From NCBI GenBank assembly GCA_028687275.1, contig JAQUAK010000001.1:292213-356212 (forward strand): DNA of 64,000 bases. Reading direction: 5' to 3'. The notes beneath the pieces are model-generated. The model did no database searches, was not told where the DNA came from, and worked only from the letters and a program-made list of their open reading frames with translations. The position numbers were made by a program, and so were the translations under genes. This document shows positions 7,578 to 23,822 of the stretch, piece after piece; within the stretch, counting starts at the first letter, position 1; each line of letters begins with the position of its first letter. This stretch comes from Patescibacteria group bacterium. Its GTDB lineage: Bacteria > Patescibacteriota > Patescibacteriia > Patescibacteriales > UBA12465.

Positions 7578-9380
7578 ATGTCTTCAGCGGAAGAAATTAA
7601 AACCAAATTGGATATTGTAGATGTAATTAGGGAATATATCCAAGTGAAGGCGGTGGGCGCTAATTTTCAAGCCCTCTGTCCTTTTCATCATGAAAAATCT
7701 CCTTCTTTTGTAATTTCTCCAGATAAACAGATTTGGCATTGTTTTGGCTGTGGCAAGGGTGGCGATGTTCTGTCTTTTGTGCAAGAAATGGAAGGCCTTA
7801 GTTTCCCGGACACCCTACGACTGTTAGCTCCAAAGGCCGGTGTGACTTTAAAATATGAATCAACTCAGGAATATTCTAAACGGGGAAGACTCTTGGATTG
7901 TCTATTAGCAGCGTCTGAGCAAGGACAGTATTGGTTGGAGCATGATGCCATGGGCAAGAAGATGAAAGCCTATTTGTTAAAACGTGGTTTAAGTGAGAAG
8001 ACTTTAAAAGATTGGCAAGTCGGTTATGTGCCCGATGCCTGGACACCAATGCTTGATTATTTGCGTTCTAAAAAATTTAAAGATGAAGAAATATTTGCCG
8101 CCGGTTTAGCTGGACGCAGTGAGCGTGGGAGTGCCTATGATCGTTTTCGAGATCGTATTATTTTTCCGATTAAAGATGTGAGCGGCCATGTTATTGCTTT
8201 TACCGCCCGCGTTAATCCCGAAAAGGAACAAACTATTCCGGGCGGGAAATATATTAATAGTCCCCAAACAGAGGTGTATGACAAAAGTCGAGTTCTATTT
8301 GCGCTCGATAAGGCAAAGCGTAACATTAAAGACCGTGGCTTTGCGATTGTAGTGGAGGGTCAAATGGACGCTATTGCTTGCCATCAACATGGCTTTACCA
8401 ATACAGTTGCTTCTTCGGGAACCGCCCTAACGGCTGAGCAGTTAAATCTATTAAAACGTTTTAGTAATAACATCGCCCTATCATTTGATATGGATACGGC
8501 TGGCCAGTTAGCGGCTGATCGGGGTATTCGCGAAGCCATGGCTTTAGATATTAATTTAAAGATTATTACCTTATCGGCAGAATATAAAGATCCAGATCAA
8601 TGCCTGCAGACTAATCCTGATGATTTTAAGCAGGCCGTTATTAATTCCCGACCAGTGATGGAATATTATTTTGATAAGATTAGTGCGGGAAAAGATTTGA
8701 GTAAGTTAGCTGATAAGAAGGAGGTAGTTAGATTAATGTTGAATATGATTGTCAAGTTGGCTAATAAGATTGACCAAGAATTCTGGTTTAAGCGTTTAGC
8801 TGAGAGTACTGGCGTATCCGAACAAATTTTGCGTGAAAGCGTAGTAGATAAGCCTTTAAAAGGCAAGACACCTCTAAAAACAGTGGTTAAGCCAGCTGTA
8901 GCTGAACTTGAACCAGTCAATCGGGATGAGCGTTTAGCTGATATTCTACTAGCTCTGCTTTTGAAGGCTCCAGAATACATTCCTTATGCTGCATCTCATT
9001 TAGAACCAGAAGATTTGTTGTCGGATAATTTGCGCCAATTTTACAAGAACTTAATAATCTATTATAATAAGTTTGCCCTGCTTGAGTATGATGCTTTTCG
9101 CTTATATTTGCAGGAACAGGCTGATAAAGGGGTGGAGATTATTGATCGCCTCGCTCTTTTGGCAGAAAGAGACTATTATGACTACGATTTAAATCAGCTT
9201 AAGTCAGAATTAAGTAAGATTTTATTAGAATTAAAAAAATTCAGTTTGAAGAGGAAAATTAAGCAATTAGAAGGTCAGATTGGAGTTGCTGAAGCTAGCT
9301 CAGGTCAGGCAGATCTGAACAATTTAATGACAGAGATAAAAAATTTGACTGAGCAGCTCAATTCGCTGCATAGTTTTTAA
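7578..9380 (+). CDS. dnaG: DNA primase
   Basis: Zinc ribbon [11 protein letters not shown]...CFGCGKGGD, and a Toprim region with EGQMD and DMDTAG. Confidence 0.92.
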
Positions 9381-9384
9381 AATT

Positions 9385-10758
9385 ATGGCCACATCCAAAA
9401 ATACAAAAAAAACCACTTCTAAAAAAGTGGCAATAAAAAAAACAGTGAGCCCTAAAGCGGCTGTGAAAAAGACAGGCACTAAAGTGTCTAAGAAGGTGGC
9501 GCCCAAAAAGACTGTGGCTAAAAAAGTGGTAGTAAAAAAATCTCCAGTCAAAAAGACTGTGGCTAAGAAAATAAAAGCGAAAAAAGCCTCTGCTAAAAAA
9601 ACTATTAGCAAGAAGATAAATGCTAAGAAGGTGGCTAAGCCTAAGGTGGTTAATAAGGTGCCTCATGTGGTTGTCTTTCCTACCGAAGAGCAGATTAAGA
9701 AGCTTTTAGATAAGGGTCGCTTAAGAGGTTTTTTAACTGAAACTGAACTACTATACTTATTTCCAGAGGTAGAAGAGTATGTTTATGAATTTGATGTTTT
9801 TCTAGGTGATTTACAGAAAAATGGCATTCGTATCGCTGAAGACTCAGGTAGAATTTTAGATACTCATGAAAAGAATCCTAACATCACTTCCGCTAAAGCC
9901 GCTGCTTCTGTTACCTTTGATTTATCCAAATTAAGTGCTGATTCTATTCAGATGTATTTAAAGGAAATTGGCAAAGTGCCACTTTTAACTTCGGCTGAAG
10001 AAGTGGAATTAGCTAAGCGTAAAGAAAAGGGTGATAGAGAGGCAGAAAAGAAGATTATTGAGGCTAATCTACGTTTAGTTGTTTCCATTGCTAAGAAGTT
10101 TGCTGGAGCTAAGGGTTTGAGTTTGCTTGACCTGATTCAGGAGGGCAATATTGGCCTATTTAGAGCCGTAGAGAAGTTTGAATACCGTAAGGGCTATAAG
10201 TTCTCAACTTATGCTACTTGGTGGATTAGACAGGCAATTACGAGGGCTTTAGCTGATCAGAGTCGTACCATTCGTATTCCTGTTCATATGGTGGAAACTA
10301 TTAATAAATTTCAACAAGTTCAGCGTACTTTAATTCAGGAATTAGGACGTGAGCCTTTAGCAGATGAGATTGCTGCTGAGATGGGTGAAGATATTGTTAA
10401 GGTGAGATATATTATTAAGATTTCTCAGGATACTATTTCTTTAGAAACAAGTATTGGTGATGATGAAGAAGATTCAACTCTGGAAGATTTTATTGAGGAT
10501 GTAAAGAATGTTACTCCAGATAGGGCGGCTGCTTTGCAGTTGTTGCGTGATTATGTGCGTGATATTGTGGCGCAGTTATCACCACGTGAACAGAAGATTT
10601 TAGAAATGCGTTTTGGTTTAGTTGACGGCGTTGCTCATACCTTAGAAGAGGTAGGGCAAGAGTTTGAAGTTACTCGTGAACGTATTCGTCAAATCGAGTC
10701 TAAGGCTTTAGAGAAAATCAGACGCTTTAAGGGCCTAGAGAAGTTGAGAGATTACTAA
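9385..10758 (+). CDS. rpoD: Primary RNA polymerase sigma factor with a Lys/Ala/Val-rich N-terminal extension
   Basis: Region 2 ([13 protein letters not shown]) and region 4 ([22 protein letters not shown]). The first ~90 aa are KKxVAKK-type repeats. Confidence 0.92.
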
Positions 10759-10814: not shown

Positions 10815-10843
10815 TTGACTTGCAGTGGCATTTATTCTAGAAT
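10815..10843 (+). promoter_or_regulatory. Sigma-70-type promoter for the tRNA gene
   Basis: TTGACT (10815-10820), 17-nt spacer, TAGAAT (10838-10843). Lies ~50 nt upstream of the tRNA 5' end. Confidence 0.6.
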
Positions 10844-10893: not shown

Positions 10894-11211
10894 TCCCAGG
10901 TAGCGCAGCGGTAGCGCAGTTGGCTGTGAACACAAGTAATACGCAGCTTCCTCAAGTAATTGAGGTCGAAAACAAGGTGAACTGTCTGGAAGCCTAAAAT
11001 CGAAAGATCAAGGTAATCAGCAGCCAAGCCGTGTATATCTTTACACGGAAGGTTCAGAGACTATCCCGAAAGGGAGTAGGTCCGTCTGCAAAGACGGCCC
11101 GAAGCGCCTTGCGCCCATCAATTTTGGTGGGCGATGATATAGTCCACACCATTAAGAAATTAGTGGGTAAGTGTAACCAATTGGTCGTGGGTTCGAATCC
11201 CACCCTGGGAG
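10894..11211 (+). tRNA. tRNA-Asn(GUU) interrupted by an intron. Exons are 10894-10927 and 11174-11211. CCA is not encoded.
   Basis: Acceptor TCCCAGG/CCTGGGA; D arm GCGC-AGCGGTA-GCGC; anticodon stem GTTGG/CCAAT; T arm GTGGG-TTCGAAT-CCCAC; discriminator G. The spliced loop is CTGTTAA. Confidence 0.85.
10928..11173 (+). ncRNA. Group I intron (IC3-like) in the anticodon loop, no ORF
   Basis: P1: exon GCTGT with GCAGC (10943-10947), giving a U.G pair at the splice site. Terminal G at 11173. GNRA-capped hairpins at 10950-10965, 10999-11008, 11064-11075 and 11082-11097. CAGAGACTA core at 11055-11063. Confidence 0.75.
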
Positions 11212-11220
11212 CAAGCAAAA

Positions 11221-11246
11221 ATAGGCTAATATTAGCTTATTTTTTG
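11221..11246 (+). terminator. Rho-independent terminator after the tRNA
   Basis: ATAGGCTA/TAGCTTAT stem followed by a T run. Confidence 0.65.
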
Positions 11247-11265
11247 TTATCAAAGAGATAATTAT

Positions 11266-11291
11266 GTCACAATTTGTGACGCTATTGTGAC
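11266..11291. repeat. Perfect palindrome GTCACAATTTGTGAC followed by a GTGAC-N6-GTGAC direct repeat
   Basis: The 17-mer TGTGACGCTATTGTGAC recurs at 12101-12117 and 21697-21713. Confidence 0.7.
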
Positions 11292-11425
11292 GTAGAAACT
11301 CAATGTTTTGCGCTCCTCGGTTTTTTTCTGTATCCTACCCCGGAATTGACAATGGGAGTTGTGATGTGGTATATTTTCTTAATTACTTTAACAATTTAAA
11401 TATATTCGAACAAAGAGAGAGCCAT

Positions 11426-12004
11426 ATGAAAATAAAAAAAGGAAACAACCGCATCGTTTTTACTTTCCCCTTTTTAGGGATAGTAATAAAATTTCCGATC
11501 ATTAATCTTTTTAGAGTGTTTAAGACAGTTTTCACAGGGAGAGTGGAGGGAATAAGAAACAAAAAATTGTTCAAAAGATATTTTGAGTGGTCGGTACATG
11601 ATCCCAATTCTTTTAAATATGCATTATTCAGAGGGCTACTTGCTAATTGGAGTGAATTCCGATTTTATCGCAACACTAAAAACCCTTTTCTTACACCTAC
11701 TTATTTTTCCCTGCTTGGTTTTGTTAATATTCAGAAACATGGTCGCGAATGTCAATTACTTCAAGCTGACCTGTGGTGTCAACTTTTCGCACTAACTGGT
11801 GGTAAAGTTTTTGATGATGCTCATCATTTTTCCGAGCCACACAATTTTTGTCTTCAAAAAGATAAATTGCAGATTTTTGACTATGGAAGCTCTAGGACTC
11901 ATAAAGTAATTTTAGAGTATGGAGAAAAGATTGTTGAAAATTTTAATGCATCATATTGCTGGGAAGAAGAAAAAAAGAAAATTAAAGAACTAGAAAAAAT
12001 CTAG
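11426..12004 (+). CDS. Hypothetical protein with a possible protein-kinase-like fold
   Basis: ATG at 11426 preferred, preceded by an AGAGAGAG stretch. GIVIKFP resembles a VAIK motif; HHFSEPHNF...IFDYGS resembles catalytic-loop/DFG motifs. Weak. Confidence 0.4.
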   Translation: MKIKKGNNRIVFTFPFLGIVIKFPIINLFRVFKTVFTGRVEGIRNKKLFKRYFEWSVHDPNSFKYALFRGLLANWSEFRFYRNTKNPFLTPTYFSLLGFVNIQKHGRECQLLQADLWCQLFALTGGKVFDDAHHFSEPHNFCLQKDKLQIFDYGSSRTHKVILEYGEKIVENFNASYCWEEEKKKIKELEKI

Positions 12005-12020
12005 AAAAATTAAATCTAAA

Positions 12021-12050
12021 CGAGTGCATTCAACATACACTCGTTTTTTT
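12021..12050 (+). terminator. Rho-independent terminator
   Basis: CGAGTG...CACTCG stem followed by TTTTTTT. Confidence 0.7.
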
Positions 12051-12070
12051 ATTACCCATCTCCCACCACC

Positions 12071-12262
12071 CCTCCTTGTATTGCCAGCGAAACAAAAAGA
12101 TGTGACGCTATTGTGACTGAAAGGTGATAAAAGCTGGTAATTTGTGGATACGGATGACAATTTAGAAAGTGTAAAAAAATATCTAAAACTAGATAAATTT
12201 AGCTACTATTAAATAAAATTCTAAATCATCAATTTCTGCTTCGAATCCCACCCTGGGAGCAA
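12071..12262 (+). repeat. Direct repeat DR1 (~190 bp), ending in an exact 23-nt copy of the tRNA-Asn 3' end
   Basis: About 90% identical by eye to 21667-21855. 12240-12262 equals 11192-11214 (TTCGAATCCCACCCTGGGAGCAA). Confidence 0.85.
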
Positions 12263-12304
12263 ATTAAAATTTCTGCTTGTTTTAGCGGATTTTTTGTATT
12301 TATT

Positions 12305-12329
12305 GGTTCGAATCCTTGTTGGGTTGTGA
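12305..12329 (+). repeat. tRNA T-loop/acceptor-like fragment (a different acceptor sequence)
   Basis: GGTTCGAATCCTTGTTGGGTTGTGA with no matching 5' half. Confidence 0.5.
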
Positions 12330-12373
12330 ATTAATTTATGTTATAATTTGATTATCAAATTAATTATAATGAT

Positions 12374-12955
12374 ATGACAAAATTTATTTTACACGGAGGG
12401 GAGACTGGTATTCCCAATGAACATAACAAGGCTTTTTATCAAGAATGGGTTAAAGATTTTGGTGATAACAAAGTGCCAACAATCTTATTGGTTTATTTCT
12501 CAAGACCGGAAGAAATTTGGGATGATCTTGAAAAATCTGATAAGGAAAGATTTGCTAATTATACCAATGATAGAGTAGCTAATTTTATGGTTGCTAGTAA
12601 TGATATGGATAAATTTAAAGAACAAATAGAAGAAGCAGATGTTCTATATTTCAGAGGAGGGGAGACTCAAAAAATAGTAGATACTATGAAATCAATAAAG
12701 GATGAATTTTTATTGTTAATAGATGGAAAAACATATGCAGGCTCATCAGCTGGTGTAATGTTTTTATCTCACTATTCAAAAAGCAATGAAAGAGATTGGC
12801 AAAAATATTTGGGATTACTACCGATAGATTCGTTTGTCCATTATTCACGAGAAAAGCATAAAGGGATTATTGAGGAATTTAAAAAAGAACATCCTGAAAA
12901 TCATAATGAATGTATTTTGTTACCGGAGACAGAGTTTGTTATAAAAAATTATTAA
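12374..12955 (+). CDS. Peptidase S51 / class-I glutamine amidotransferase-like protein
   Basis: FRGGETQKIVD...YAGSSAGVMFLS nucleophile-elbow pattern of the peptidase E family. Confidence 0.55.
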   Translation: MTKFILHGGETGIPNEHNKAFYQEWVKDFGDNKVPTILLVYFSRPEEIWDDLEKSDKERFANYTNDRVANFMVASNDMDKFKEQIEEADVLYFRGGETQKIVDTMKSIKDEFLLLIDGKTYAGSSAGVMFLSHYSKSNERDWQKYLGLLPIDSFVHYSREKHKGIIEEFKKEHPENHNECILLPETEFVIKNY

Positions 12956-12960
12956 CTTTA

Positions 12961-12988
12961 GTTCGAACATCGTCCACGACCCCGAGCA
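12961..12988 (+). repeat. Degenerate T-loop/acceptor-like fragment
   Basis: GTTCGAACATCGTCCACGACCCCGAGCA, followed by TCACCCTGGGGG at 13021-13032. Confidence 0.4.
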
Positions 12989-13041
12989 TGTGATCTGTAC
13001 TCCCATAAATATATAGTGAGTCACCCTGGGGGTAAACTATT

Positions 13042-13082
13042 AAATCATCAAACAGGTTCTAACGTTTTCCAGCTCTCGGAGC
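13042..13082 (+). repeat. Diverged att-like repeat (R2a)
   Basis: AAATCATCAAACAGGTTCTAACGTTTTCCAGCTCTCGGAGC. About 70% identical to 13533-13573. Shares the AAATCATCAA lead-in and GGAGC end with DR1/DR2. Confidence 0.5.
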
Positions 13083-13141
13083 TAAGGCAAAAACCCCATT
13101 AATATTGGGGTTTTTGTTATACCCCGGATAGGACGCTCGAA

Positions 13142-13528
13142 ATGATTGAAGAATTTTGGTATAATAATTATATATTAAAAATTGTAAAGGGTATGAAAAT
13201 ATTACAGTTTACAACTATTTTTACAGCGTTTTTGTGGGTAGCGACAGGGCTGGTGACTGTTGGAAGTATATATCTTTCCAATATTGGTTTTGTTATTAAC
13301 TTGATTGTGGGGTTGTCATTTATCCTAATAGGTTTTTACCTTCACCTAAAAGAGAAGAATATATTTGGACTTTTAAAGATAGTCCCTGAAGATCAGAGCA
13401 GAAATCTGTATAAGAAAGTAATCGTGGGAGAAATTATTTTTATTGCAGCAGCTTTGTTTTTTGGACTTATGGCTTTTTCTGCAGTTTTATCAAGAGTATT
13501 TGGAGAAGGTTTTGCAGTGTTCGGTTAG
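13142..13528 (+). CDS. Small membrane protein, 3 predicted helices
   Basis: Hydrophobic ORF. Alternative start at 13193 (MKILQF). Confidence 0.5.
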   Translation: MIEEFWYNNYILKIVKGMKILQFTTIFTAFLWVATGLVTVGSIYLSNIGFVINLIVGLSFILIGFYLHLKEKNIFGLLKIVPEDQSRNLYKKVIVGEIIFIAAALFFGLMAFSAVLSRVFGEGFAVFG

Positions 13529-13532
13529 TAGG

Positions 13533-13573
13533 AATCAACAAAACAGTTTCTAACCTTCTCTAGTTCCTGGAGC
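13533..13573 (+). repeat. Diverged att-like repeat (R2b)
   Basis: AATCAACAAAACAGTTTCTAACCTTCTCTAGTTCCTGGAGC, followed by a terminator hairpin, as R2a is. Confidence 0.5.
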
Positions 13574-13705
13574 CTGTAATTTTTGGGTGTGCTTGAACGA
13601 CGTAATTCGTTTAAAATCAGCTAAAAAACAAAAGAACATGATCTAGGTCATGTTCTTTTGTTTTAGTCAAAAGTGAGAAAAGACAGTAAAATGGGGTGAT
13701 TGTTA

Positions 13706-13727
13706 GTTCGAATCCGAGGTCTAGTCA
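13706..13727 (+). repeat. tRNA T-loop/acceptor-like fragment
   Basis: GTTCGAATCCGAGGTCTAGTCA followed by TTTTTTAGCGGAA. The same TTTAGCGGA string follows DR1 at 12283-12291. Confidence 0.5.
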
Positions 13728-13828
13728 TTTTTTAGCGGAATTCTCTTTGACTATCGGTTAAATTAATGAGATTATAGTAATATAAAGTTTTTATAAAGAA
13801 AATATAAAATAATTATAAATTTACTTAT

Positions 13829-14176
13829 ATGTCAGATATAAATCAATTAACTGAGAGAATACAAAATTTTATAAAAGAACGTGATTGGAATCAATTCCAT
13901 AATCCTAAAGATTTAGCTCTTTCTTTAGTTTTAGAGTCCGCCGAAGTAATGGAACATTTCCAATGGAAGAATAACGAAGAAATTCAGGAATATATAAAAT
14001 CTCATAAAAATGAGATTGGCGAGGAGCTGTCGGATGTTTTATATTGGGTTTTACTAATGAGCCATGATTTAGATATTGATATAAAAAAAGCGTTTGAAGA
14101 TAAGATGCTTAAAAATGAAGCGAAGTATCCGATAGATAAAGCGAAGGGAAAACATGATAAATATACCAGTTATTAA
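13829..14176 (+). CDS. MazG-like nucleoside triphosphate pyrophosphohydrolase (dCTPase/YpjD-like all-alpha NTP-PPase)
   Basis: 115 aa. ERDWNQFHNPKDLALSLVLESAEVMEHFQWK and EELSDVLYWVL carry the EExxE/D-type motifs of the family. Confidence 0.8.
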   Translation: MSDINQLTERIQNFIKERDWNQFHNPKDLALSLVLESAEVMEHFQWKNNEEIQEYIKSHKNEIGEELSDVLYWVLLMSHDLDIDIKKAFEDKMLKNEAKYPIDKAKGKHDKYTSY

Positions 14177-14179
14177 TTT

Positions 14180-16033
14180 ATGTTAGTTTATCAAGCGACT
14201 AAGGAAAAATTTTCAAACGATATCTTAAGCAATAATATTGAAAATATTATTGCTGATATTATTAAAGTTAAATTAAATTTTTCTGTTCCAAAAAATCAAA
14301 TATTGGCATTTAAAAATTCTTTGATTTACATGGATAAAGTTATTGCTGATCCAGACATACCTAGCGATAGCGGAGTGGCTATTGAGTTCCAAATTCCACA
14401 AACATCCAAGCGGGTTGATTTTATTCTGACAGGACAGGATGATAAAAAAGATGACCAAGTAATAATAATTGAGCTTAAACAATGGGAAGAAGCTCAAATT
14501 ACAGAAAAAGATGGTGTCGTTATAACTCGCTTTGCCCATGGCACAGTAGAAGCTAGCCACCCTTCATATCAGGCGTGGTCTTATGCGGCCCTTATTAACG
14601 GTTTTAATGAGGCTGTTTATGATGGAAATATCACATTAAACCCTTGTGCTTATTTACATAACTACAAGGATAATGGAGTTATTACTGATCCTTTTTATAA
14701 AGAATATCTTGATAAGGCTCCGGCTTTTTTAAAAAATGACGCTTTAAAGTTGAGAGATTTTATTAAAACTTTTGTTAAATATGGAGATAAAACGAATATA
14801 ATGTATCGCATCGAGGCCGGAAAGATCAGGCCTTCAAAAGCACTGTCAGATAGTTTGTCTTCAATGCTAAAGGGTAATCAAGAATTCGTAATGATTGATG
14901 ACCAGAAGATAGTTTATGAAACCGCGCTTTCTTTGGCAAGAAAATCAAGCGAGAAAAATAAAAATGTCTTAATTGTTCAAGGTGGGCCGGGTACTGGAAA
15001 ATCTGTTGTGGCTATCAATTTATTAGTGCAAGCAACAAAAGCAGGTTTAGTGGCAAAATATGTGACAAAAAATTCAGCACCACGAGATGTTTACGCTAGT
15101 AAATTAACAGGAACTTTGAAAAGAACAGAATTTAGTAATTTATTTTCTGGTTCTGGAAGTTTTGTTAATTGCCCAGAAAATTCTTTTGATTTTTTGATTA
15201 TTGATGAAGCTCATAGACTTAATGAAAAATCAGGTATGTTTAAAAACTTAGGTGAGAATCAAGTAAAAGAAATTATTAAATCGTCAAAATGTTCAGTCTT
15301 TTTTATAGATGAAGATCAAAGGGTCACTTTAAATGATATTGGGAGTCAACAGGAAATAACTAAGTGGGCGGAAGATGCCGACTGTAGAGTTCATACTCTA
15401 GAATTAGCTTCTCAATTCAGGTGTAATGGATCAGACGGATATTTAGCCTGGCTTGATAATTCTTTACAAATACGAGAGACGGCTAATGTTAGATTTGAAA
15501 ATATTGATTATGATTTTCAAATTATTGATTCACCAAGTGAGTTGCGGGATATAATCTTTGAGAAAAATAAACTAAATAATAAAGCTAGGTTAGTGGCAGG
15601 ATACTGTTGGAATTGGGTGAGCAAGAAGAATAAAAATGATAACGATATAGTGATCCCTGAATTTGATTTTAAAATGCGTTGGAATTTAGCCACAGATGGA
15701 AATTTATGGATTATCAAGCCAGAATCCGTTAATGAAATCGGGTGTATACATACTTGTCAGGGTTTGGATTTAGATTATGTCGGCGTAGTTGTCGGTGATG
15801 ATTTAGTAGTGCGAGACGGAAGAGTTCTTGTTGATCCGAGTAAGCGTGCGGGTACAGATAAATCATTGAATGGTTTTAAAAAAATGTTGAAAGATGACCC
15901 AGAAGAAGCTAAGAAGCACGCGAGTCTTATTATAAGAAATACCTATCGAACTTTAATGACTCGAGGAATGAAGGGTTGCTATGTATATTTTACAGACAAT
16001 GAAACAAGAGAATATTTTAAATTGTTAATGTAA
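14180..16033 (+). CDS. PD-(D/E)xK nuclease-like N-domain fused to a DUF2075 (Schlafen-group-III-like SF1) P-loop ATPase
   Basis: VDFILTG...IIIELKQW (D...ExK). Walker A GGPGTGKSV and Walker B IIDEAHRL. C-terminal TCQGLDLDYVGVV...TRGMKGCYVY as in DUF2075. Confidence 0.8.
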   Translation: MLVYQATKEKFSNDILSNNIENIIADIIKVKLNFSVPKNQILAFKNSLIYMDKVIADPDIPSDSGVAIEFQIPQTSKRVDFILTGQDDKKDDQVIIIELKQWEEAQITEKDGVVITRFAHGTVEASHPSYQAWSYAALINGFNEAVYDGNITLNPCAYLHNYKDNGVITDPFYKEYLDKAPAFLKNDALKLRDFIKTFVKYGDKTNIMYRIEAGKIRPSKALSDSLSSMLKGNQEFVMIDDQKIVYETALSLARKSSEKNKNVLIVQGGPGTGKSVVAINLLVQATKAGLVAKYVTKNSAPRDVYASKLTGTLKRTEFSNLFSGSGSFVNCPENSFDFLIIDEAHRLNEKSGMFKNLGENQVKEIIKSSKCSVFFIDEDQRVTLNDIGSQQEITKWAEDADCRVHTLELASQFRCNGSDGYLAWLDNSLQIRETANVRFENIDYDFQIIDSPSELRDIIFEKNKLNNKARLVAGYCWNWVSKKNKNDNDIVIPEFDFKMRWNLATDGNLWIIKPESVNEIGCIHTCQGLDLDYVGVVVGDDLVVRDGRVLVDPSKRAGTDKSLNGFKKMLKDDPEEAKKHASLIIRNTYRTLMTRGMKGCYVYFTDNETREYFKLLM

Positions 16034-16038
16034 ATTTA

Positions 16039-16638
16039 ATGTGTATAACTAATCATGAACAAAGTGTTTCTGAAAAATTAAGTGATGAGTTAAATAGAGA
16101 TATGGATGAAATGCACAGACTTGCTAATAAGGCGAGTGATTTATCACTAAAAAATTATTCAACTTGGCGGGATTACTTACACAAGTATTATCTTGTGATG
16201 CTGGCTATTGCCGGGGGCCTAGGAATATATCAAGACGGTAATAGATCAAGTTTAATCTTAATTGTCATAGGCGTATTAATAGGTTTTTTAACAATAAATT
16301 TATATTTATATTGGGAAAGAAAGCATATAAGGTTTAGCTATGATATCGATATTACTAAACCTTATAAATTTTTTAATCATTCTGATATAAAGGAGAGCGA
16401 CCCACCTTTAGCATTAAGACTTAACTTAAGAGATGTTATTGAGGCTAACAGAAAATTGTTAAAAGAATCTAGTAATAAGGAAGAATCAAAAATTTTAAAA
16501 GGTAAGATAAATGCTGATAAAAGATGGCTCAGTATGATAAAGTATTGGAATATGTATGGTTTTGATCCTTTTTGGATCACTGGAGTAATAATCAGCTTGC
16601 TGTTAACTTTTTTGGGATTAATTTTAATTATTTCATAA
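16039..16638 (+). CDS. Membrane protein of unknown function, 3-4 helices
   Basis: Starts 5 nt after the ATPase stop codon. Two central helices and one C-terminal hydrophobic helix. Confidence 0.55.
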   Translation: MCITNHEQSVSEKLSDELNRDMDEMHRLANKASDLSLKNYSTWRDYLHKYYLVMLAIAGGLGIYQDGNRSSLILIVIGVLIGFLTINLYLYWERKHIRFSYDIDITKPYKFFNHSDIKESDPPLALRLNLRDVIEANRKLLKESSNKEESKILKGKINADKRWLSMIKYWNMYGFDPFWITGVIISLLLTFLGLILIIS

Positions 16639-16736
16639 ATAATAGCTAATATAATTGCCATACAAGTTGATAAACGTCAATATTAATGCTAGAATGGTAT
16701 TAAAAATAGCAATAAATAAAAAACCAATTTTATTAT

Positions 16737-17918
16737 ATGGGGGATTATTCATGGCTGATAATTATAGTTTTTATAGTTTCTTGCATAAGTTTTGTATCTT
16801 GGGCACGAGAGCAACATTTGAATTCTAAAAAATATTTAGAACTTAAACCTAGATTAGACAATTTGGATAAATCGGTAGCTGAATTTAACGCCCAGTCCAA
16901 AAAAGAACGAGAGGATATTGATAAAATGGTAAAACAAAAATCAATGGGCTTTCCGTGGTTAGCAGAAGCATTTGCTGATTACTATTCGTTGGCGGATTCC
17001 CAAAGAGAAGATTATTTAAAAAGAAAAAGTCATCCTGCATATACCTCTGCTGAGGTTGTCCGGGAAATAAAAAAAGAAAAAAAGGAATTACTTAGGTCAA
17101 ATAAAATAACTAATTACAAAATTAATTATTATGAAAAATTATTTCCGTGGCTTACAGAATTAATTGCGGAAAATGAAGACGAAGAAATGCCTGTGAAAAT
17201 GGGTAACGATAATGAGGACGATAACAATAACGAGGACAAAGTAAAGGACTTTTTAACACCAGAAGAATATAAAAAACTTCCGTCAGTAGTGAGAAATCAA
17301 AAAGCATTAGATAGATATTTATTAAATAGAAATAAGTCAAAATGGGCGATTGGTAGAGATTACGAAATGTACGTTGGATATTTATTTGAACAAAAAGGAT
17401 ATTCTATTGAATACAAGGGAATAATTGACGGATTTGAAGATTTAGGGAGAGATGTTATTGCTATTAAAGATGACGAGGTATGCATTATTCAATGTAAATA
17501 TTGGGCGCGATATAAAGAAATACACGAAAAACATATTTTCCAATTATTTGGCACAACTATGGAATATTGGATACAGAATTTCAATAATTCCAAAAAACCA
17601 AAAACTTTTGTCGAATTTGCCAAATTTTTAAATGAAGACAAGCTCAGGCCAATATTTTTTACATCAACGTCTTTGTCTGATAAATCAAAGGAAATGGCGA
17701 GAGCTCTTAGTATCGAGATTACAGAGAAGGTGCCGATTGGAGATTTTCCGAGAATTAAATGTAACATTTCTGGCAGGGATGGTGAAAAAATATATCACTT
17801 GCCATTCGATCAGCAATATGACAGAACAATTATAAAAAATAAAGGAGAATTTCATGCTTTTACTGTCAAAGAGGCTGAAGATTCGGGATTCAGAAGAGCT
17901 TTTAGACACAGATATTAA
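16737..17918 (+). CDS. Membrane-anchored Mrr-cat-type restriction endonuclease-domain protein
   Basis: N-terminal TM helix, coiled-coil, acidic linker. GRDYEMYVGYLFEQKGY...GRDVIAIKDDEVCIIQCKYW matches the Mrr catalytic core. C-terminal KIYHLP...EAEDSGFRRA motif. Confidence 0.7.
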   Translation: MGDYSWLIIIVFIVSCISFVSWAREQHLNSKKYLELKPRLDNLDKSVAEFNAQSKKEREDIDKMVKQKSMGFPWLAEAFADYYSLADSQREDYLKRKSHPAYTSAEVVREIKKEKKELLRSNKITNYKINYYEKLFPWLTELIAENEDEEMPVKMGNDNEDDNNNEDKVKDFLTPEEYKKLPSVVRNQKALDRYLLNRNKSKWAIGRDYEMYVGYLFEQKGYSIEYKGIIDGFEDLGRDVIAIKDDEVCIIQCKYWARYKEIHEKHIFQLFGTTMEYWIQNFNNSKKPKTFVEFAKFLNEDKLRPIFFTSTSLSDKSKEMARALSIEITEKVPIGDFPRIKCNISGRDGEKIYHLPFDQQYDRTIIKNKGEFHAFTVKEAEDSGFRRAFRHRY

Positions 17919-17964
17919 TTTAATTGTAAAATAATAAGTTTTATTGAATTTAAAAAATAAAAAA

Positions 17965-18495
17965 ATGAGGTTATTTAGAAATGTTAAATTGTCCTGGTTG
18001 TTTGTTATTATTTTATTAATACTTGTTATTGTTTTATTTTTACAAAAACAAGGTTATAAATATGAATTAATTTATAAATATCGAACTATTCCAGATATAG
18101 ACTTATCAAATACTTTACAAGAATTTCAAGACAGCAACATAGGTGAAATTAGAGGATTTGTTAAATTTGATAACGTTAGTAATCAGCCTAAAAATTTAAA
18201 ACAGTATTATATTATAAAACCTCTCAATAAGTTCGATGAAAATTTGTTGCAATATTATTCAGTCGAGGAAATAATAAAGATGGATTATCTTCCTCCTGCG
18301 AGTATTGGTTTTTCGGAAATAAAAGAAGTGAGTAAAACTTATAATATTGTGACTCTAGAAGATGAAAATGGTAATCAGTTTTTCATTAATAGGAATACAA
18401 AAGAAGTATCGATGAGAGATTCATCGGGAGATAATACTATATTGATTACCGATGAATGGGATTATTCTGATTTTATGACAGAATGGCTAAAATAA
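17965..18495 (+). CDS. Hypothetical single-pass membrane protein
   Basis: ATG at 17965 preferred over the TTG at 17944. N-terminal TM helix. No motif recognised. Confidence 0.5.
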   Translation: MRLFRNVKLSWLFVIILLILVIVLFLQKQGYKYELIYKYRTIPDIDLSNTLQEFQDSNIGEIRGFVKFDNVSNQPKNLKQYYIIKPLNKFDENLLQYYSVEEIIKMDYLPPASIGFSEIKEVSKTYNIVTLEDENGNQFFINRNTKEVSMRDSSGDNTILITDEWDYSDFMTEWLK

Positions 18496-18519
18496 TATAT
18501 ATATAATTTTAAATATCAT

Positions 18520-19290
18520 ATGTTTAAAAATGACAGATTAAAAAAATCGCCACTTAGAAAAGAGTCTTTACGTCGAGCAGGACAGTCTTTAGACGAAAAA
18601 ATTAATAAAGAGATTGATGATAAAATAATCTTTCCGTTTATAGTCGTCTTTGTTATTTGGGCTATCGTAATTATTTCGTGGTTGAGCATTTATTTTAAAA
18701 TCTCTTATAATCCACAGATTTTTACAATTGCGGCGATTCTAGTTACTATTTTTTTTGCTATTAAAATTCCAGCGGCTATTAAAAATATTAAAAACATGCG
18801 ACTAGGTAGAGATGGTGAGTGTATAGTAGCTGAATCCCTGGAGGAGCTTAGATCAGTAGGCTATAAAATTTATAATGATATAGTAGGAGAATCTTTCAAT
18901 ATTGATCATATAATAGTCGGTCCAGGTGGTGTATTTACTATAGAAACCAAAACATACAGAAAGCGAGTCGGCACTAATCCCCAGGTTAATTATGATGGTA
19001 ATGTTATAAAAATTGATGGAGCTGTATACCCAAAAGATGCTATTCAGCAAGCAAAGGGGCAAATGTATTGGCTAGAGGGATTTATAAAAGATAAGGTCAA
19101 GTTGACCATGAATGTTATTCCTGTGGTTATTTTTCCAGGATGGTTTATTACTGGCAATAATAGTAGTAGAGAAGTTTGGGTTTTAAATGAAAATTCTCTG
19201 TTAACAATATTAAAAAGTAGGGAGCAAATATTAAATAAAGAGCAAATAAATTTAATTGCAAGTCATATTGAGAGTTATAATAGAAGTTAG
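18520..19290 (+). CDS. Membrane-anchored NERD-domain nuclease-like protein
   Basis: Two N-terminal TM helices, then GRDGECIVAESL...NIDHIIVGPGGVFTIETKTY (NERD D/E...ExK core). Confidence 0.75.
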   Translation: MFKNDRLKKSPLRKESLRRAGQSLDEKINKEIDDKIIFPFIVVFVIWAIVIISWLSIYFKISYNPQIFTIAAILVTIFFAIKIPAAIKNIKNMRLGRDGECIVAESLEELRSVGYKIYNDIVGESFNIDHIIVGPGGVFTIETKTYRKRVGTNPQVNYDGNVIKIDGAVYPKDAIQQAKGQMYWLEGFIKDKVKLTMNVIPVVIFPGWFITGNNSSREVWVLNENSLLTILKSREQILNKEQINLIASHIESYNRS

Positions 19291-19311
19291 TTTAATATAT
19301 AAAAGTATATT

Positions 19312-20943
19312 ATGTTAGAAAAAATTTTTTTGAAAAATTATCGCAGTTTTGGTGGAGGTGGCGTGCATGTAGACGGACTGGGCAAGGTGAATATTTTTAT
19401 TGGAAAAAATAACTGTGGTAAAACTAATCTATTAAGATTCCTTGATTTTTTAGATAAAAATTTACCATTAGGAAATGCTAGTCCTAGTAAACATGCCTTA
19501 GATATAGATGATTATTTAAATTCGGACACAAAAAATCAAGTGGAGCTTGTAATTAATAATAACATTCCGGATACTTTAGCTGGAGATTTGGAGACTATGG
19601 GCATAGTTAATTTGGAACGGAAATTTATTTTTTCTGCAATGAATGGTGAACGCACTAGCATCTCAACAAATAATACATTTAATAAAGGCACAGTTATTGA
19701 AGAGGCTGTAAGAAAATATGTTACAAATACTCTGCACGGCCCAAGTGGCGGACCTTTTGAGGATAGGCTGAGAGATTTAGATATTGGAGTAATACAGAAT
19801 ATTTTTCCCAACATTCCCAGAGTAATTTTTTTAGAAGAATATAGAAAATTATCAAATGATCGTGGATTAAGGGCGCAGCTTAATAGTATTATTAATTATA
19901 ATCATCTTTCAAGAGCTAAAAATAAAAAGAAGAAAGAGGACTTACTTCAATTTATTTCAGATATTTTAGGTGAGAGCGCAGAAATAAATATCCCCTCATT
20001 AGAAGAAGAAATAGAATTAATAATGAATAATGATAAACATCTACCATTAACTCATTTTGGCACCGGCATACAAGACGTTCTTCTCCTAGGCATGTATTTG
20101 ACCGCAAATGATGACATGATTATTTGCATTGATGAGCCAGAGCTTCATCTCCATCCCGGTATTCAAAAATCTCTATTAAAATTTATTTCTGAGAAAACTA
20201 ATAATCAATATTTTATATCTACTCATTCAAATGCCTTTTTAGATTTTAAGATTAAAGACAAAAAGGTTTTTAGGGTTTGCTTAGATAGGCATGGTAATAC
20301 AAATATTGATTTATGTGAGAATATAAGTAGCACCCATAATATTTTGGATGATTTAGGTATTGGGGCAAGTGATATAATGCAGTCAAACGGGATTATTTGG
20401 GTGGAGGGTCCCAGCGACAGGGTTTACATAAAAAAGTGGCTAGAAATATTAGCCCCAGATTTGATAAATGATTTTCACTACTCTTTTCAATTTTATGGCG
20501 GAACAATATTAAGTCATTATGCGGTTAGTGAAAATTACTTTTCAGATTACATTAATTTATTAATGATAAATAGAAATTCATACATAGTTATGGACAGTGA
20601 CATGGATAGAGAGTTCATCACTGAAGATCTTAGAGAGACTAAACAAAGAGTAATTAATGAGTGCAACCAAAATGGTTTAGGGTACTGGGTTACAAGCGGA
20701 AGAGAAATAGAAAATTATTTGAGCAATAATTTATTAGAAAATTGTTTTAATGAACAAGTATCTCGTGATAAATTTTTAAAAATTGAAAGTTATTGTAGTC
20801 ATTTTAATTCCAAAAAAAAGATAGATTTTGCTAAAGTGGTTTCAAATGCTATGACAGTAGACGAATTCGATGATAATTATGATTTAAAGATAAAGATGGA
20901 TGAATTAATACAGAAAATTAAAGATTGGAATAATATAGAATAA
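19312..20943 (+). CDS. OLD-family ATPase-Toprim nuclease (AAA_15/21-type ABC ATPase plus Toprim/DUF4435-like domain)
   Basis: Walker A GKNNCGKTN. Walker B/D-loop ICIDEPELHLHP. Toprim glutamate in IIWVEGPSDRVY and DxD in VMDSDMD. Confidence 0.78.
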   Translation: MLEKIFLKNYRSFGGGGVHVDGLGKVNIFIGKNNCGKTNLLRFLDFLDKNLPLGNASPSKHALDIDDYLNSDTKNQVELVINNNIPDTLAGDLETMGIVNLERKFIFSAMNGERTSISTNNTFNKGTVIEEAVRKYVTNTLHGPSGGPFEDRLRDLDIGVIQNIFPNIPRVIFLEEYRKLSNDRGLRAQLNSIINYNHLSRAKNKKKKEDLLQFISDILGESAEINIPSLEEEIELIMNNDKHLPLTHFGTGIQDVLLLGMYLTANDDMIICIDEPELHLHPGIQKSLLKFISEKTNNQYFISTHSNAFLDFKIKDKKVFRVCLDRHGNTNIDLCENISSTHNILDDLGIGASDIMQSNGIIWVEGPSDRVYIKKWLEILAPDLINDFHYSFQFYGGTILSHYAVSENYFSDYINLLMINRNSYIVMDSDMDREFITEDLRETKQRVINECNQNGLGYWVTSGREIENYLSNNLLENCFNEQVSRDKFLKIESYCSHFNSKKKIDFAKVVSNAMTVDEFDDNYDLKIKMDELIQKIKDWNNIE

Positions 20944-21094
20944 ACAGAAGATGCAAAAGAATATCTTTTTATAACAGGATTTGATATAATATTGATGAAT
21001 ATTTATTAAATAAAGATAAAGTATTTTATCAGTTTTGTTTAATATATAATATATGCATTTGACTTTTTATGAAAAATGAAATATATTGATTATA

Positions 21095-21124
21095 CAAAAA
21101 AACTCCTGAATTTCATTTCAGGAG
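21095..21124 (-). terminator. Terminator oriented for a minus-strand transcript
   Basis: CTCCTGAA/TTCAGGAG 8-bp stem with an A run on the plus strand upstream, which reads as a U run on the minus strand. Confidence 0.55.
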
Positions 21125-21666
21125 TATAAAATTTACATAAATCAGCAACCATTGTTTTACGTTAAGTTAATTGTCTCTTTTGATGAAGAACCGTTCCAGC
21201 GGTTCTTTTCTTATATTCGGGGCATTTTTAAGTACCTCGTTTTTTTAGGGAATATATACTTTCCATTTTTTACTACAAAATTACACAGTAAATATTCTCG
21301 TCCGTCATTATCTGTTATATTAAAACATCTCTGGGTGGGCCTTTTCATGTTATTTTGGCTCACCCATAAAACTGTTACACACTTTTAAGGGTGAGCAGTT
21401 ATATGGTTGCTGGTTTGTATAAATTTTTAAATAACTTAACGCAATCATTCCTATTGGCAACACACTACATATTGTGGTTGATTAGATAAATCTATAGCAT
21501 TTCTTTACTTTTATTATCCAACTTTAGCACAATAGTTTTCAAGGGTCAAAAAATACTAATATTAAGTAAAATAATATGTATTTACAAATTTTAAAAATTG
21601 GGGTGTGGATAACTATTTATTAAAAATGATAGATATAAGCATTAATTAACAATCTTATTTATCACT

Positions 21667-21855
21667 CCTCTTTGTATTGCCAGAGAAACAAAAAACTGTG
21701 ACGCTATTGTGACTGAAAGGCGACAAAAACTGGTAATTTGTGGATACGGCTGACAACTTAGAAGGTGAAAAAAATATCTAAAAATAGATAAATTTAGCTA
21801 ATATTAAATAAAATTCTAAATCATCAATTTTTACTTCGAACCCCACTCTGGGAGC
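21667..21855 (+). repeat. Direct repeat DR2, ending in a 19/21 copy of the tRNA-Asn 3' end (candidate attR)
   Basis: Aligns with 12071-12260 along its whole length. 21835-21855 is TTCGAACCCCACTCTGGGAGC. Confidence 0.85.
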
Positions 21856-21949: not shown

Positions 21950-22516
21950 ATGATTGAAAAATATAAGCAACAAATTGTTAAGTTCTATCGCCAAAATAAA
22001 AGAATGCCTAACTTTTCTGAAGTAATGGTGCTCTTAGCTTTTAAGTCTAAGAATGCTGTTTTTAAATTAGTCAGTAAATTAGAAGAGGATAATTTCTTAA
22101 GTAAGGATGAGAAGGGCAAACTAATACCGAAGAATCTATACGGTGAGCTTAGAGTCTTAGGAGAAGTGGAGGCGGGCTTTCCTTCGGCCGCTGAAGAGGA
22201 ATTAGCCGATACGATGAGCATGGATGAATATCTGATTAAAAATAAAGAAGCCAGCTACCTACTTAAGGTTAGTGGCGACTCCATGAAGGACGCGGGTATA
22301 ATGAATGGTGATATGGTCTTGGTTGATCGTAGTGTAACGGCTGTGCCTGGTGATATTGTTATTGCCGAAGTTGATAAGCAGTGGACCATTAAATATTTAA
22401 GGAAAAAAGGGAAGGAGACCTACTTAGAACCGGCTAATAAGAAATTTGCCAATATTTACCCGACGGAGGAATTAAAGATTGCCGCGGTCGTTAAGGCAGT
22501 GATTAGAAAATACTAA
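21950..22516 (+). CDS. lexA: LexA-type repressor (HTH plus S24 peptidase)
   Basis: Ala-Gly cleavage site in VEAGFPS. Catalytic Ser in GDSMKDAGI. Lys in TIKYLRKKG. Confidence 0.85.
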   Translation: MIEKYKQQIVKFYRQNKRMPNFSEVMVLLAFKSKNAVFKLVSKLEEDNFLSKDEKGKLIPKNLYGELRVLGEVEAGFPSAAEEELADTMSMDEYLIKNKEASYLLKVSGDSMKDAGIMNGDMVLVDRSVTAVPGDIVIAEVDKQWTIKYLRKKGKETYLEPANKKFANIYPTEELKIAAVVKAVIRKY

Positions 22517-22517
22517 T

Positions 22518-23822
22518 ATGGCCTATACTTTGTCCTCATTTCCGCAAGCGATTTTACACGTGGACGCTGATTCTTTTTTTGCCTCCTGCGAGGTTGCTCG
22601 TCATCCCGAGTTAAAAGGCAAGCCAGTGGTAACCGGCTTAGAGCGGGGCATTGTCTCCTCTTTAACTTATGAAGCTAAGGCTCGTGGAGTAAGAAGAGCC
22701 ATGTCTTTTCGGGAGGTAAAGAAAATATGTCCAGATGTAGTTTTTTTACCTTCTGACTATGAAACCTATAGCTTATATTCTTTGCGGATGTTTAGCATTG
22801 TCCGGCGCTTTACGCCTGAGGTGGAAGAATATAGCATTGATGAGTGTTTCGCCGATTTAACGGGCATGCAGAGGCCAAATCAGCTCTCCTATGAGAAGAT
22901 GGCAGCGAAGATTAAAGCTGCCTTAGATAGCGAGTTAGGCTTTACCTTCTCTATCGGTTTAGCGCCCACGAAAGTACTAGCGAAAATTGGCTCTAAGTGG
23001 AAAAAGCCCTCTGGCTTAACTATAATTTCTAGCAATGAAATCAATAATTATCTCAGCCAGTTAAAAGTTGATGCCGTTTGGGGCATTGGACCACATACCA
23101 GTGCTTATTTAAATAAACTAGGAATTAATACCGCTTTGCAATTTGCCGAAAAAGATGAGGATTGGGTTAAAAATAGATTAACTAAACCCCATCAGGAAAT
23201 CTGGCAGGAGTTAAGAGGGCAAATGGTTTATAAAGTTGATGCCAATAAAAAGAGTAGCTATCAATCAATTAGCAAAACTAAAACTTTTACCCCACCCTCA
23301 AGGGAGAGGGAATATATATTCAGTCAGCTTTCTAAGAATACGGAAAATGCCTGTATTAAACTAAGACGCTATCAGTTAGCAACTAAGAAGGTTTTCTTTT
23401 TCCTAAAGACTCAAGATTTTATTTGTCAGGGCTATGAGTTTAAACTTGTTCGTCCGACTGATAATCCGGTGGAGATTATTAAAATGATTAATAAATACTT
23501 TGATTCCGTCTTAACCGTGGGGCATTTATTTAGGGCTAGTGGTATTATTTTACTTGATTTAGTGGCCAATTTTTCTCGACAAGCCGATTTGTTTAATGAA
23601 GTGGCAACTGCCGAAAAGATTTCTCGCATCTTTGCTAGCGTTGATGGTGTTTCCAAACGCTATGGCAAGCACACCCTGTTTCTGGGCTCTAGTTTATCAG
23701 CCATAACTGAGCCTCAGCACGCTGGGACTCGTCAAATAGCGGCTGAGCGTAAGCATGATTTATTTAAAGGTGAGACCATCAGAAAAAAATTAGCCATACC
23801 TTTTTTAGGGACAGTGGTTTAA
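22518..23822 (+). CDS. Y-family translesion DNA polymerase (UmuC/DinB-like)
   Basis: ILHVDADSFFASCEV and YSIDECFADLTG catalytic motifs. Starts 2 nt after the lexA stop. Confidence 0.88.
   Translation: MAYTLSSFPQAILHVDADSFFASCEVARHPELKGKPVVTGLERGIVSSLTYEAKARGVRRAMSFREVKKICPDVVFLPSDYETYSLYSLRMFSIVRRFTPEVEEYSIDECFADLTGMQRPNQLSYEKMAAKIKAALDSELGFTFSIGLAPTKVLAKIGSKWKKPSGLTIISSNEINNYLSQLKVDAVWGIGPHTSAYLNKLGINTALQFAEKDEDWVKNRLTKPHQEIWQELRGQMVYKVDANKKSSYQSISKTKTFTPPSREREYIFSQLSKNTENACIKLRRYQLATKKVFFFLKTQDFICQGYEFKLVRPTDNPVEIIKMINKYFDSVLTVGHLFRASGIILLDLVANFSRQADLFNEVATAEKISRIFASVDGVSKRYGKHTLFLGSSLSAITEPQHAGTRQIAAERKHDLFKGETIRKKLAIPFLGTVV

Follow-up and report, generated by a model that had tools for sequence, protein, structure and literature searches.

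The DNA analysed here, hereafter the window, is a 64,000-nucleotide (nt) stretch of contig JAQUAK010000001.1 from a Patescibacteria group bacterium of the Candidate Phyla Radiation (CPR). Directly downstream of the genes dnaG and rpoD it carries a tRNA gene interrupted by a group I intron, and the 3′ end of this tRNA gene recurs further downstream, at the ends of what look like inserted islands. We are highly confident that the locus is a Patescibacteria (CPR) gene for tRNA-Asn(GUU), split between U35 and U36 by a 246-nt group I intron of subgroup IA. The identity of the intron is plain, its boundaries are exact, its structure is conserved, and it is homologous to introns already published. 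CCA is not encoded at the end of the 3′ exon, where CAA comes next (coordinates of all features are collected in Table 1).

When run with default settings, ARAGORN calls no tRNA gene anywhere in the 64-kb window, yet once positions 10928-11173 are deleted the same program returns tRNA-Asn(gtt), with a regular cloverleaf and the anticodon GUU. A previous reading of this DNA, made from the letters alone (the sequence-only reading), had stated that a cloverleaf is complete only without the insert, and in this it was correct; the exon coordinates, stems and discriminator G that it gave are all present in the sequence, and the loop CTGTTAA with anticodon GTT, which it obtained by joining the exons, has the exact junctions of intron-less orthologues. 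These orthologues were found by scanning the 34-nt 5′ exon against 185,579 species-representative genomes, which yielded 26 loci, mostly titled as metagenome-assembled genomes (MAGs) of Patescibacteria, Magasanikbacteria, Falkowbacteria or Moranbacteria. An intron is present at exactly the same site in 12 loci, and in the 14 without one the 34-nt 5′ exon is followed directly by TAACCAAT, in agreement with the exon junction CTGT/TAACCAAT (CTGT/TAACC) in the window. Six of the intron-less genes were run through ARAGORN, and all six were called tRNA-Asn(gtt). Moreover, the mature tRNA of five loci (L121, L128, L136, L137 and L144), each a tRNA-Asn(gtt), is identical to that of the spliced window gene, and the alleles of L121 and L128 read GGCTGTTAACCAAT around the insertion site. 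The insertion between nt 35 and 36, also proposed beforehand, is matched by the junction of the intron-less alleles and by the position of the splice-site U.G pair described below.

The insert matches the Rfam family RF00028 (Intron_gpI) at 10918-11166 over the full model (1-253), scoring 79.9 bits (gathering score 50; E-value 1.1e-18). This match is far beyond chance, and RF00028 is the sole Rfam family to reach threshold within the window. The structure of the intron was drawn by hand and with the help of the Rfam alignment, and examined in a covariation alignment that joins the window copy to 11 intron-bearing relatives recovered in full; endonuclease insertions were removed from it, and locus L125 was left out. 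The structure runs from P1 to P9, with P7.1, P7.2 and a P3/P7 pseudoknot; 97.6% of its cells hold standard pairs, and compensatory changes on both sides are seen in 36 of the 76 pairs of the 12-intron alignment. None of 500 shuffles reached any observed pairing measure, and pairing fell to 31-44% when the 3′ partners were slid by 1-3 columns. Covariation backs P2, P3, P4, P5a, P6a, P7.1, P7.2, P8 and P9; P1, P6 and P7 never vary, so that covariation neither supports nor contradicts them, but all three match the family consensus, which is the sole support for P7. Furthermore, an unconstrained minimum free energy fold gives the same hairpins (z = -5.87).

In P1, exon nucleotides GCUGU (10923-10927) pair with GCAGC (10943-10947), and the splice-site wobble U10927.G10943 coincides with the conserved U/G of the Rfam alignment and is kept as UG in all 12 homologues. 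At 11055-11063 the intron reads CAGAGACTA, and P7 matches the Rfam consensus GUUCAaAGACUA ... GAUAUAGUC and is invariant in the 12 sequences; the pair G11059-C11144 aligns with the consensus guanosine-binding pair and, by analogy with the established group I structure, would be expected to bind guanosine. Several predictions of the sequence-only reading hold: the last U of the 5′ exon lies in a P1 U.G pair, the intron ends in a G (11173) that is invariant in 12 homologues, a covariance-model search returns a group I hit above the gathering score, and the P3-P7 core can be folded. It had also counted four GNRA-capped hairpins; such hairpins are present, but there are five (L2, L5a, L7.1, L7.2 and L9).

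Table 1 Features of the split tRNA-Asn(GUU) locus and its surroundings (window coordinates, except for the introns of related loci in the last row)
Feature	Position	Strand	Remarks
5′ exon of tRNA-Asn(GUU)	10894..10927	+	tRNA positions 1-35, ends in U35; TCCCAGGTAGCGCAGCGGTAGCGCAGTTGGCTGT
Group I intron	10928..11173	+	246 nt; first base G, last base G11173; no homing-endonuclease open reading frame (ORF)
3′ exon of tRNA-Asn(GUU)	11174..11211	+	tRNA positions 36-73; discriminator G; TAACCAATTGGTCGTGGGTTCGAATCCCACCCTGGGAG
tRNA stems			acceptor TCCCAGG/CCTGGGA; D arm GCGC/GCGC; anticodon stem GTTGG/CCAAT; T arm GTGGG/CCCAC
P1	10922-10928 / 10942-10948	+	exon GGCUGU and intron G10928 with C10942-U10948; 7/7 pairs invariant (12 sequences)
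L1 loop	10929-10941	+	13 nt; site of HNH gene in relatives
P2 hairpin	10950..10965	+	GUAA loop 10956-59; compensatory changes in 5/6 pairs
P3 5′ strand CAAGGUG	10973..10979	+	partner 11105-11111; compensatory changes in 3/7 pairs
P4-P5-P5a domain	10983..11022	+	GAAA loop 11002-11005; P4/P5 100% paired, 3 covarying; P5a 3 covarying
P6 and P6a	11023..11053	+	P6 invariant; P6a covaries in 5/6 pairs
P7 5′ strand	11057..11063	+	G, bulged A11058, GACUA; partner 11140-11145; pseudoknot with P3
P7.1 hairpin UCCC GAAA GGGA	11064..11075	+	GAAA loop 11068-71; 100% paired, one covarying pair
P7.2 hairpin	11079..11099	+	GCAA loop 11088-91; compensatory changes in 6/8 pairs
P3 3′ strand CGCCUUG	11105..11111	+	from covariation alignment
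P8 hairpin	11112..11133	+	6/8 pairs covary, including G-C to A-U, window versus L146
P7 3′ strand UAGUCC	11140..11145	+	from Rfam alignment and covariation alignment
P9 hairpin	11149..11166	+	GAAA loop 11156-59; 4/7 pairs covary
Omega G (terminal guanosine)	11173	+	final ...UAAGUG invariant in 12/12; boundary independently fixed by intron-less alleles
dnaG	7578-9380		directly upstream of tRNA, with rpoD
rpoD	9385-10758		directly upstream of tRNA
Sigma-70-like promoter candidate TTGACT-17 nt-TAGAAT	10815..10843	+	~50 nt upstream of tRNA; consensus match only
att-like core TTCGAATCCCACCCTGGGAGC	11192..11212	+	21 nt, wholly in 3′ exon end, intron untouched
Island right end, copy 1	12067..12260	+	~194 nt, ends in tRNA 3′ fragment; bounds 1.05-kb segment
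MazG-like protein	13829-14176		
Schlafen-group-3/AbiO/Nhi-like helicase	14180-16033		
Mrr-type (Mrr-like) nuclease	16737-17918		
NERD protein	18520-19290		
OLD/GajA/AriA-like ATPase	19312-20943		
Island right end, copy 2	21663..21855	+	likewise ends in tRNA 3′ fragment; 89-93% identical to copy 1; bounds 9.6-kb low-GC (guanine plus cytosine) segment
Long introns of related loci	L143 40-599; L145 7220-7769; L141 2585-3150; L130 1792-2341	-	endonuclease ORF in L1

The identity of the host tRNA needs to be argued, since ARAGORN in its intron mode (-i), a check which the sequence-only reading had proposed, does detect a 246-nt intron but places it two bases upstream (10926-11171), at site 33/34, and calls the gene tRNA-Thr(tgt). 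Split in this way, a tRNA-Thr(UGU) gene would likewise have its 5′ cut preceded by U, and its intron would end in G (11171). However, U10925 would then face A10945 in a Watson-Crick pair, with no G wobble, and the sequence in the 14 intron-less genes that share the exons is CTGTTAACC, those tested being tRNA-Asn. The body of the tRNA, moreover, has a U1-A72 pair and G73, which are typical of bacterial tRNA-Asn (as in E. coli and B. subtilis) and not of tRNA-Thr. Indeed, the same two-base miscall by ARAGORN/tFind is documented in a recent study, where sequencing of the spliced product disproved it (PMC13011429). Because of the P1 wobble at U10927.G10943, the intron-less orthologues and the U1-A72/G73 body, we assign the gene to tRNA-Asn with the intron at 35/36; the tRNA-Thr alternative, which we reject on the position of the wobble and on the orthologues, is effectively refuted. 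A different doubt concerns the class of the intron, which might be an IC3-type tRNA intron, kin to those of cyanobacterial tRNA-Leu and Azoarcus tRNA-Ile, that moved into a new host tRNA. Such an origin would suit a small, ORF-less intron in a tRNA, and strings like CAGAGACUA, the core string from which the sequence-only reading took its pointer to IC3, are found in IC3 introns as well (such as Anabaena GCAGAGACUC; supplement of PMC13011429). That pointer fails, however, because a scan of viral contigs found GGTTCAGAGACTA ... GATATAGTC at no fewer than 120 loci (at least), so that CAGAGACUA is a generic group I core and neither an IC3 marker nor a family probe. Compared with the Rfam consensus, the intron has 39 extra nt after P7 and before the P3 3′ strand, and these form the two covarying hairpins P7.1 and P7.2. 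Helices P7.1/P7.2 (or P7.1a) at this location are reportedly what defines subgroup IA according to Michel and Westhof in 1990, whereas IC3 introns (e.g. that of Anabaena tRNA-Leu) have a compact core in which no such helices separate P7 from P3′. Of all the introns compared, that of Anabaena tRNA-Leu (IC3) is the furthest from the window copy, with 54% identity. In PMC13011429, 25 of 28 introns at 35/36 are IA, none of the Patescibacteria tRNA introns is IC, and the Asn introns of WWE3 and Nitrospirota are labelled IA1. Since P7.1 and P7.2 sit between P7 and P3′, the intron is of subgroup IA and not IC3, on the basis of its architecture (P7.1/P7.2) and of the published class of its relatives, and an IC3 origin is hardly credible.

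In a mechanism that follows standard group I chemistry, exogenous guanosine at the P7 site would attack the 5′ splice site, the terminal G11173 would then occupy the same site, and attack at the 3′ splice site by the freed 3′-OH of U35 would join the exons into a 72-nt tRNA whose loop reads CUGUUAA. We infer that this copy self-splices and that the locus is the cell's working tRNA-Asn gene. Two points weigh against our interpretation: inspection of the window by eye found no convincing P10 (3′ exon against guide/L1), and a second intact tRNA-Asn gene may lie elsewhere in the genome, of which the 64-kb window was read. (Some relatives carry GUU(A), which could pair with (U)AAC as P10.) Such a second gene would suit a decayed, non-splicing relic in a tRNA pseudogene, with a different gene supplying tRNA-Asn, as would the lack of a homing endonuclease in this copy and the mobile islands inserted beside the locus. 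Yet the catalytic-core elements are all intact and invariant, the peripheral helices keep their pairing via compensatory changes, and the exons do not differ from those of intron-less alleles that look functional (100% identity). Furthermore, the window intron is 96-97% identical to those of its closest relatives, L146 and L143, whereas the neighbouring coding DNA of the same pairs (the 3′ part of rpoD), saturated at synonymous sites, is 80-82% identical. This disparity, together with compensatory differences (e.g. in P8, window versus L146), points to selection on the RNA, which argues that the ribozyme is functional. Intron-bearing and intron-less copies of one anticodon also rarely coexist in a genome, according to PMC13011429. 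We therefore consider a relic very improbable, and favour a functional intron in a working tRNA-Asn gene.

Of the introns of the 12 related loci, seven are 234-310 nt long, four are 550-566 nt long, and a further long one, in L125, runs off the end of its locus. In each of the four complete long introns (L130, L141, L143 and L145), a 313-330 nt insertion in L1 encodes an ORF of 102-116 amino acids (aa). Two of these four ORFs were scanned with the Pfam HNH model (PF01844; cut-off 21.4 bits), and scored 23.0 bits (L130) and 20.2 bits (L143). The reading frame continues into the 3′ strand of P1 and into P2, with the conserved ...TQLP encoded by ACGCAGCTTCC, so that the C-terminus of the protein and the guide sequence of the ribozyme share nucleotides. 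The L1 endonuclease is homologous to the published one of GCA_023898525.1. The window intron contains no endonuclease ORF, as the sequence-only reading had noted, and its L1 is just 13 nt long, as against the 313-330 nt inserted in relatives. The window copy is an endonuclease-less form of a family that carries an HNH gene in sister lineages, and its lack of an endonuclease probably makes it immobile.

The ribozyme of the window is 97.2% identical to that of L146 (JAIPIE010000027.1), which has no endonuclease, 96.0% identical to that of L143 (JAFGTW010000010.1), which has one, and 60-85% identical to the others. The C-terminal 299 residues of RpoD in both of these nearest relatives are 99% identical to those of the window, and in an RpoD tree the three form one clade; elsewhere in the tree, intron-bearing and intron-less genomes are interleaved (e.g. 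L131 with and L140 without). Such a distribution is what the usual homing cycle would leave, in which an intron invades, its endonuclease decays and the intron is finally lost; recent transfer into the lineage of the window is not required. We did consider recent lateral transfer as an explanation for an intron identity of 96-97% beside an rpoD identity of 80-82%, and rejected it as unnecessary: because the C-terminal RpoD residues of the same three genomes are 99% identical, vertical descent with constraint on the RNA suffices. The published account suggests ‘limited’ transfer of these introns (PMC13011429). Sister lineages differ in state (L131 with the intron, L140 without), forms with and without endonuclease coexist within a single clade of 99% RpoD identity (L143 versus the window and L146), and we tentatively raise the possibility, somewhat doubtful, that the family is now cycling through gain, endonuclease loss and intron loss among close Patescibacteria, rather than being static and vertically inherited with limited transfer.

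Some of the related records deserve attention in themselves. Default ARAGORN calls no tRNA in the 8-kb loci of L146 and L143, and their tRNA-Asn genes are probably unannotated in the deposited MAG records. Six loci (L121, L123, L124, L128, L134 and L141) are titled ‘uncultured Gammaproteobacteria bacterium’ yet carry a Patescibacteria-type tRNA-Asn, and are probably mislabelled; dnaG-rpoD synteny is present in L121, L124, L128 and L141 among these Gammaproteobacteria-titled MAGs. The same exon is also found in L135, titled Candidatus Udaeobacter.

Upstream of the tRNA, the order dnaG-rpoD-tRNA-Asn is common to many of the 26 loci, with and without intron; it is present in L121, L128, L136 and L137, while the locus of L144 holds the 3′ end of rpoD only. 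The candidate promoter between rpoD and the tRNA belongs to a type of match that is no commoner here than in shuffled sequence. RpoD itself has a Lys/Ala-rich N-terminal extension of ~90 aa, with a sub-threshold match to HC2 (histone-H1-like; 34.6 bits versus 40). Nearly all genes of the window (1-64000) lie on the + strand, and its GC skew is strongly positive.

Downstream, the end of the 3′ exon forms an att-like core, TTCGAATCCCACCCTGGGAGC, that recurs exactly at 12240-12260 and with 2 mismatches at 21835-21855, where no recurrence is expected by chance. These repeats, together with the two right-end copies, delimit a segment of 1.05 kb and one of 9.6 kb, and the region 11212-21855 looks like two tandem insertions at the 3′ end of tRNA-Asn; three copies of a 17-nt motif, TGTGACGCTATTGTGAC, lie at 11275, 12101 and 21697. 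The 9.6-kb segment has a GC content of 0.29-0.34, compared with 0.37-0.39 upstream, and encodes an S51 peptidase-like protein in addition to the genes of Table 1; low GC and defence-type genes together span 12374-20943. The 233-aa ORF of the 1.05-kb segment has no match in Pfam, NCBIfam or PADLOC, and ORFs 11303-12004, 13142-13528, 16039-16638 and 17944-18495 have no family match. No integrase or recombinase was detected, either as a Pfam domain among all ORFs of at least 120 aa between 11.3 and 28.8 kb or in the subsets of ORFs scanned with NCBIfam and PADLOC. The sequence-only reading had made the tRNA the integration target of an adjacent island, a claim that agrees with the direct repeats of the tRNA 3′ end but finds no integrase to accompany it; since no integrase gene was detected, the segments would be remnants or elements mobilised in trans. 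When 14 proteins of the island and of the DNA beyond it were compared by tblastn with the 26 related loci, none had a match, so that no island-free relative could be aligned over the site and the empty site could not be reconstructed. Right after the distal att repeat comes a gene pair (21950-23822) whose products are an S24 peptidase (UmuD-like) and a Y-family polymerase (UmuC/ImpB-like); the pair may have adjoined the tRNA originally or be additional mobile cargo. Through its 3′ exon the gene may also serve integrase-less islands with defence-type cargo as an attachment site; if so, and if the intron family is indeed cycling, intron and islands would be two unrelated mobile elements that exploit one essential 72-nt gene.

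The practical consequence of this locus is one of annotation. Default tRNA finders miss tRNA-Asn here, and the intron mode of ARAGORN names the wrong amino acid; because the gene goes undetected, tRNA-Asn seems to be absent from such genomes, and both estimates of completeness and inferences on codon usage are distorted for the CPR. The window also adds a member from a Magasanikbacteria-/Falkowbacteria-like lineage to a recently described intron family, and the related loci provide a natural series at one syntenic site (intron-less, intron with HNH, intron without HNH) for study of the homing cycle. Its value accordingly lies in the annotation of a hidden essential tRNA gene and in a data point on CPR intron dynamics; it opens no new question.

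In comparison with known systems, the window intron resembles the classical bacterial tRNA introns of cyanobacterial Leu(UAA), fMet(CAU), Agrobacterium Arg(CCU) and Azoarcus Ile(CAU) in being a small, ORF-less ribozyme of the anticodon loop, in forming P1 with the anticodon stem-loop and in its U.G wobble and terminal G. The classical introns differ in being mostly IC3, in lacking P7.1/P7.2 and in occupying other loop positions: the cyanobacterial tRNA-Leu(UAA) intron sits at 34/35. The Arg and fMet introns lie at 36/37 and 33/34, respectively (PMC13011429). Measured against these, the sequence-only reading had taken an Asn(GUU) host and a 35/36 site to be unusual, yet both were already published (10.1101/2020.01.27.920355; PMC13011429). 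Using tFind, Williams (bioRxiv 2020, 10.1101/2020.01.27.920355) enlarged the set of bacterial tRNA types known to be split by introns, from 4 to 21, and these include ‘Asn.4Ug’, with an ambiguity towards ‘Thr.2Ug’, as cited in PMC13011429. Asn.4Ug, a catalogue entry only, agrees with the window in an intron after the fourth anticodon-loop position of tRNA-Asn, a U at -1 and a terminal G. The tRNA-Asn(GUU) introns of Nitrospirota at 35/36 (Table S5 of PMC13011429, class IA1) share the tRNA, the site, the IA core and extra helices after P7, but belong to another phylum, are ~59% identical to the window intron, and have a post-P7 element of different form.

The closest counterparts are those of Nakagawa et al. 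(mSystems 2026; PMC13011429), who report 15 tRNA-Asn(GUU) and three tRNA-Asp(GUC) group I introns of Patescibacteria at 35/36, with HNH genes in four of the Asn introns. One Asn and one Asp intron underwent precise, GTP-dependent self-splicing in vitro, and a terminal G-to-C change blocked exon ligation. The published introns share with the window their host tRNA, the site CUGU/UAA, the phylum, an IA-type core and the strings GGUUCAGAGACUA ... GAUAUAGUCC; their miscall by ARAGORN as Thr(UGU) at 33/34 is reproduced on the window. We computed identities against 14 of the 15 published Asn copies, leaving out GCA_016700315.1. The closest of the 14 is GCA_016699245.1 (Paceibacteria) at 70.7%, in which P7.1 (UCCC...GGGA) and P7.2 are also present, and the experimentally spliced intron of GCA_016700035.1 (Saccharimonadia) is 64% identical. 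GCA_023898525.1 and L143 both carry the HNH endonuclease in L1, with the pattern KRxYADRAEYLK...CANCH...TQLP. The exon sequence of the window, on the other hand, is found in none of the 14 published entries, and in the supplement of PMC13011429 its 16-base exon-intron junction string occurs in GCA_023898525.1 only, where the acceptor stem is different. The classes in the published tables include WWE3, UBA1384, Saccharimonadia, Paceibacteria, Microgenomatia and Dojkabacteria; the nearest genomes of the window are, by their titles, Magasanikbacteria-/Falkowbacteria-like MAGs. The window intron is therefore a new member of a published kind: the host, the site, the subgroup and self-splicing of this kind of intron were already known, and what is new is the sequence itself relative to the 14 published copies compared.

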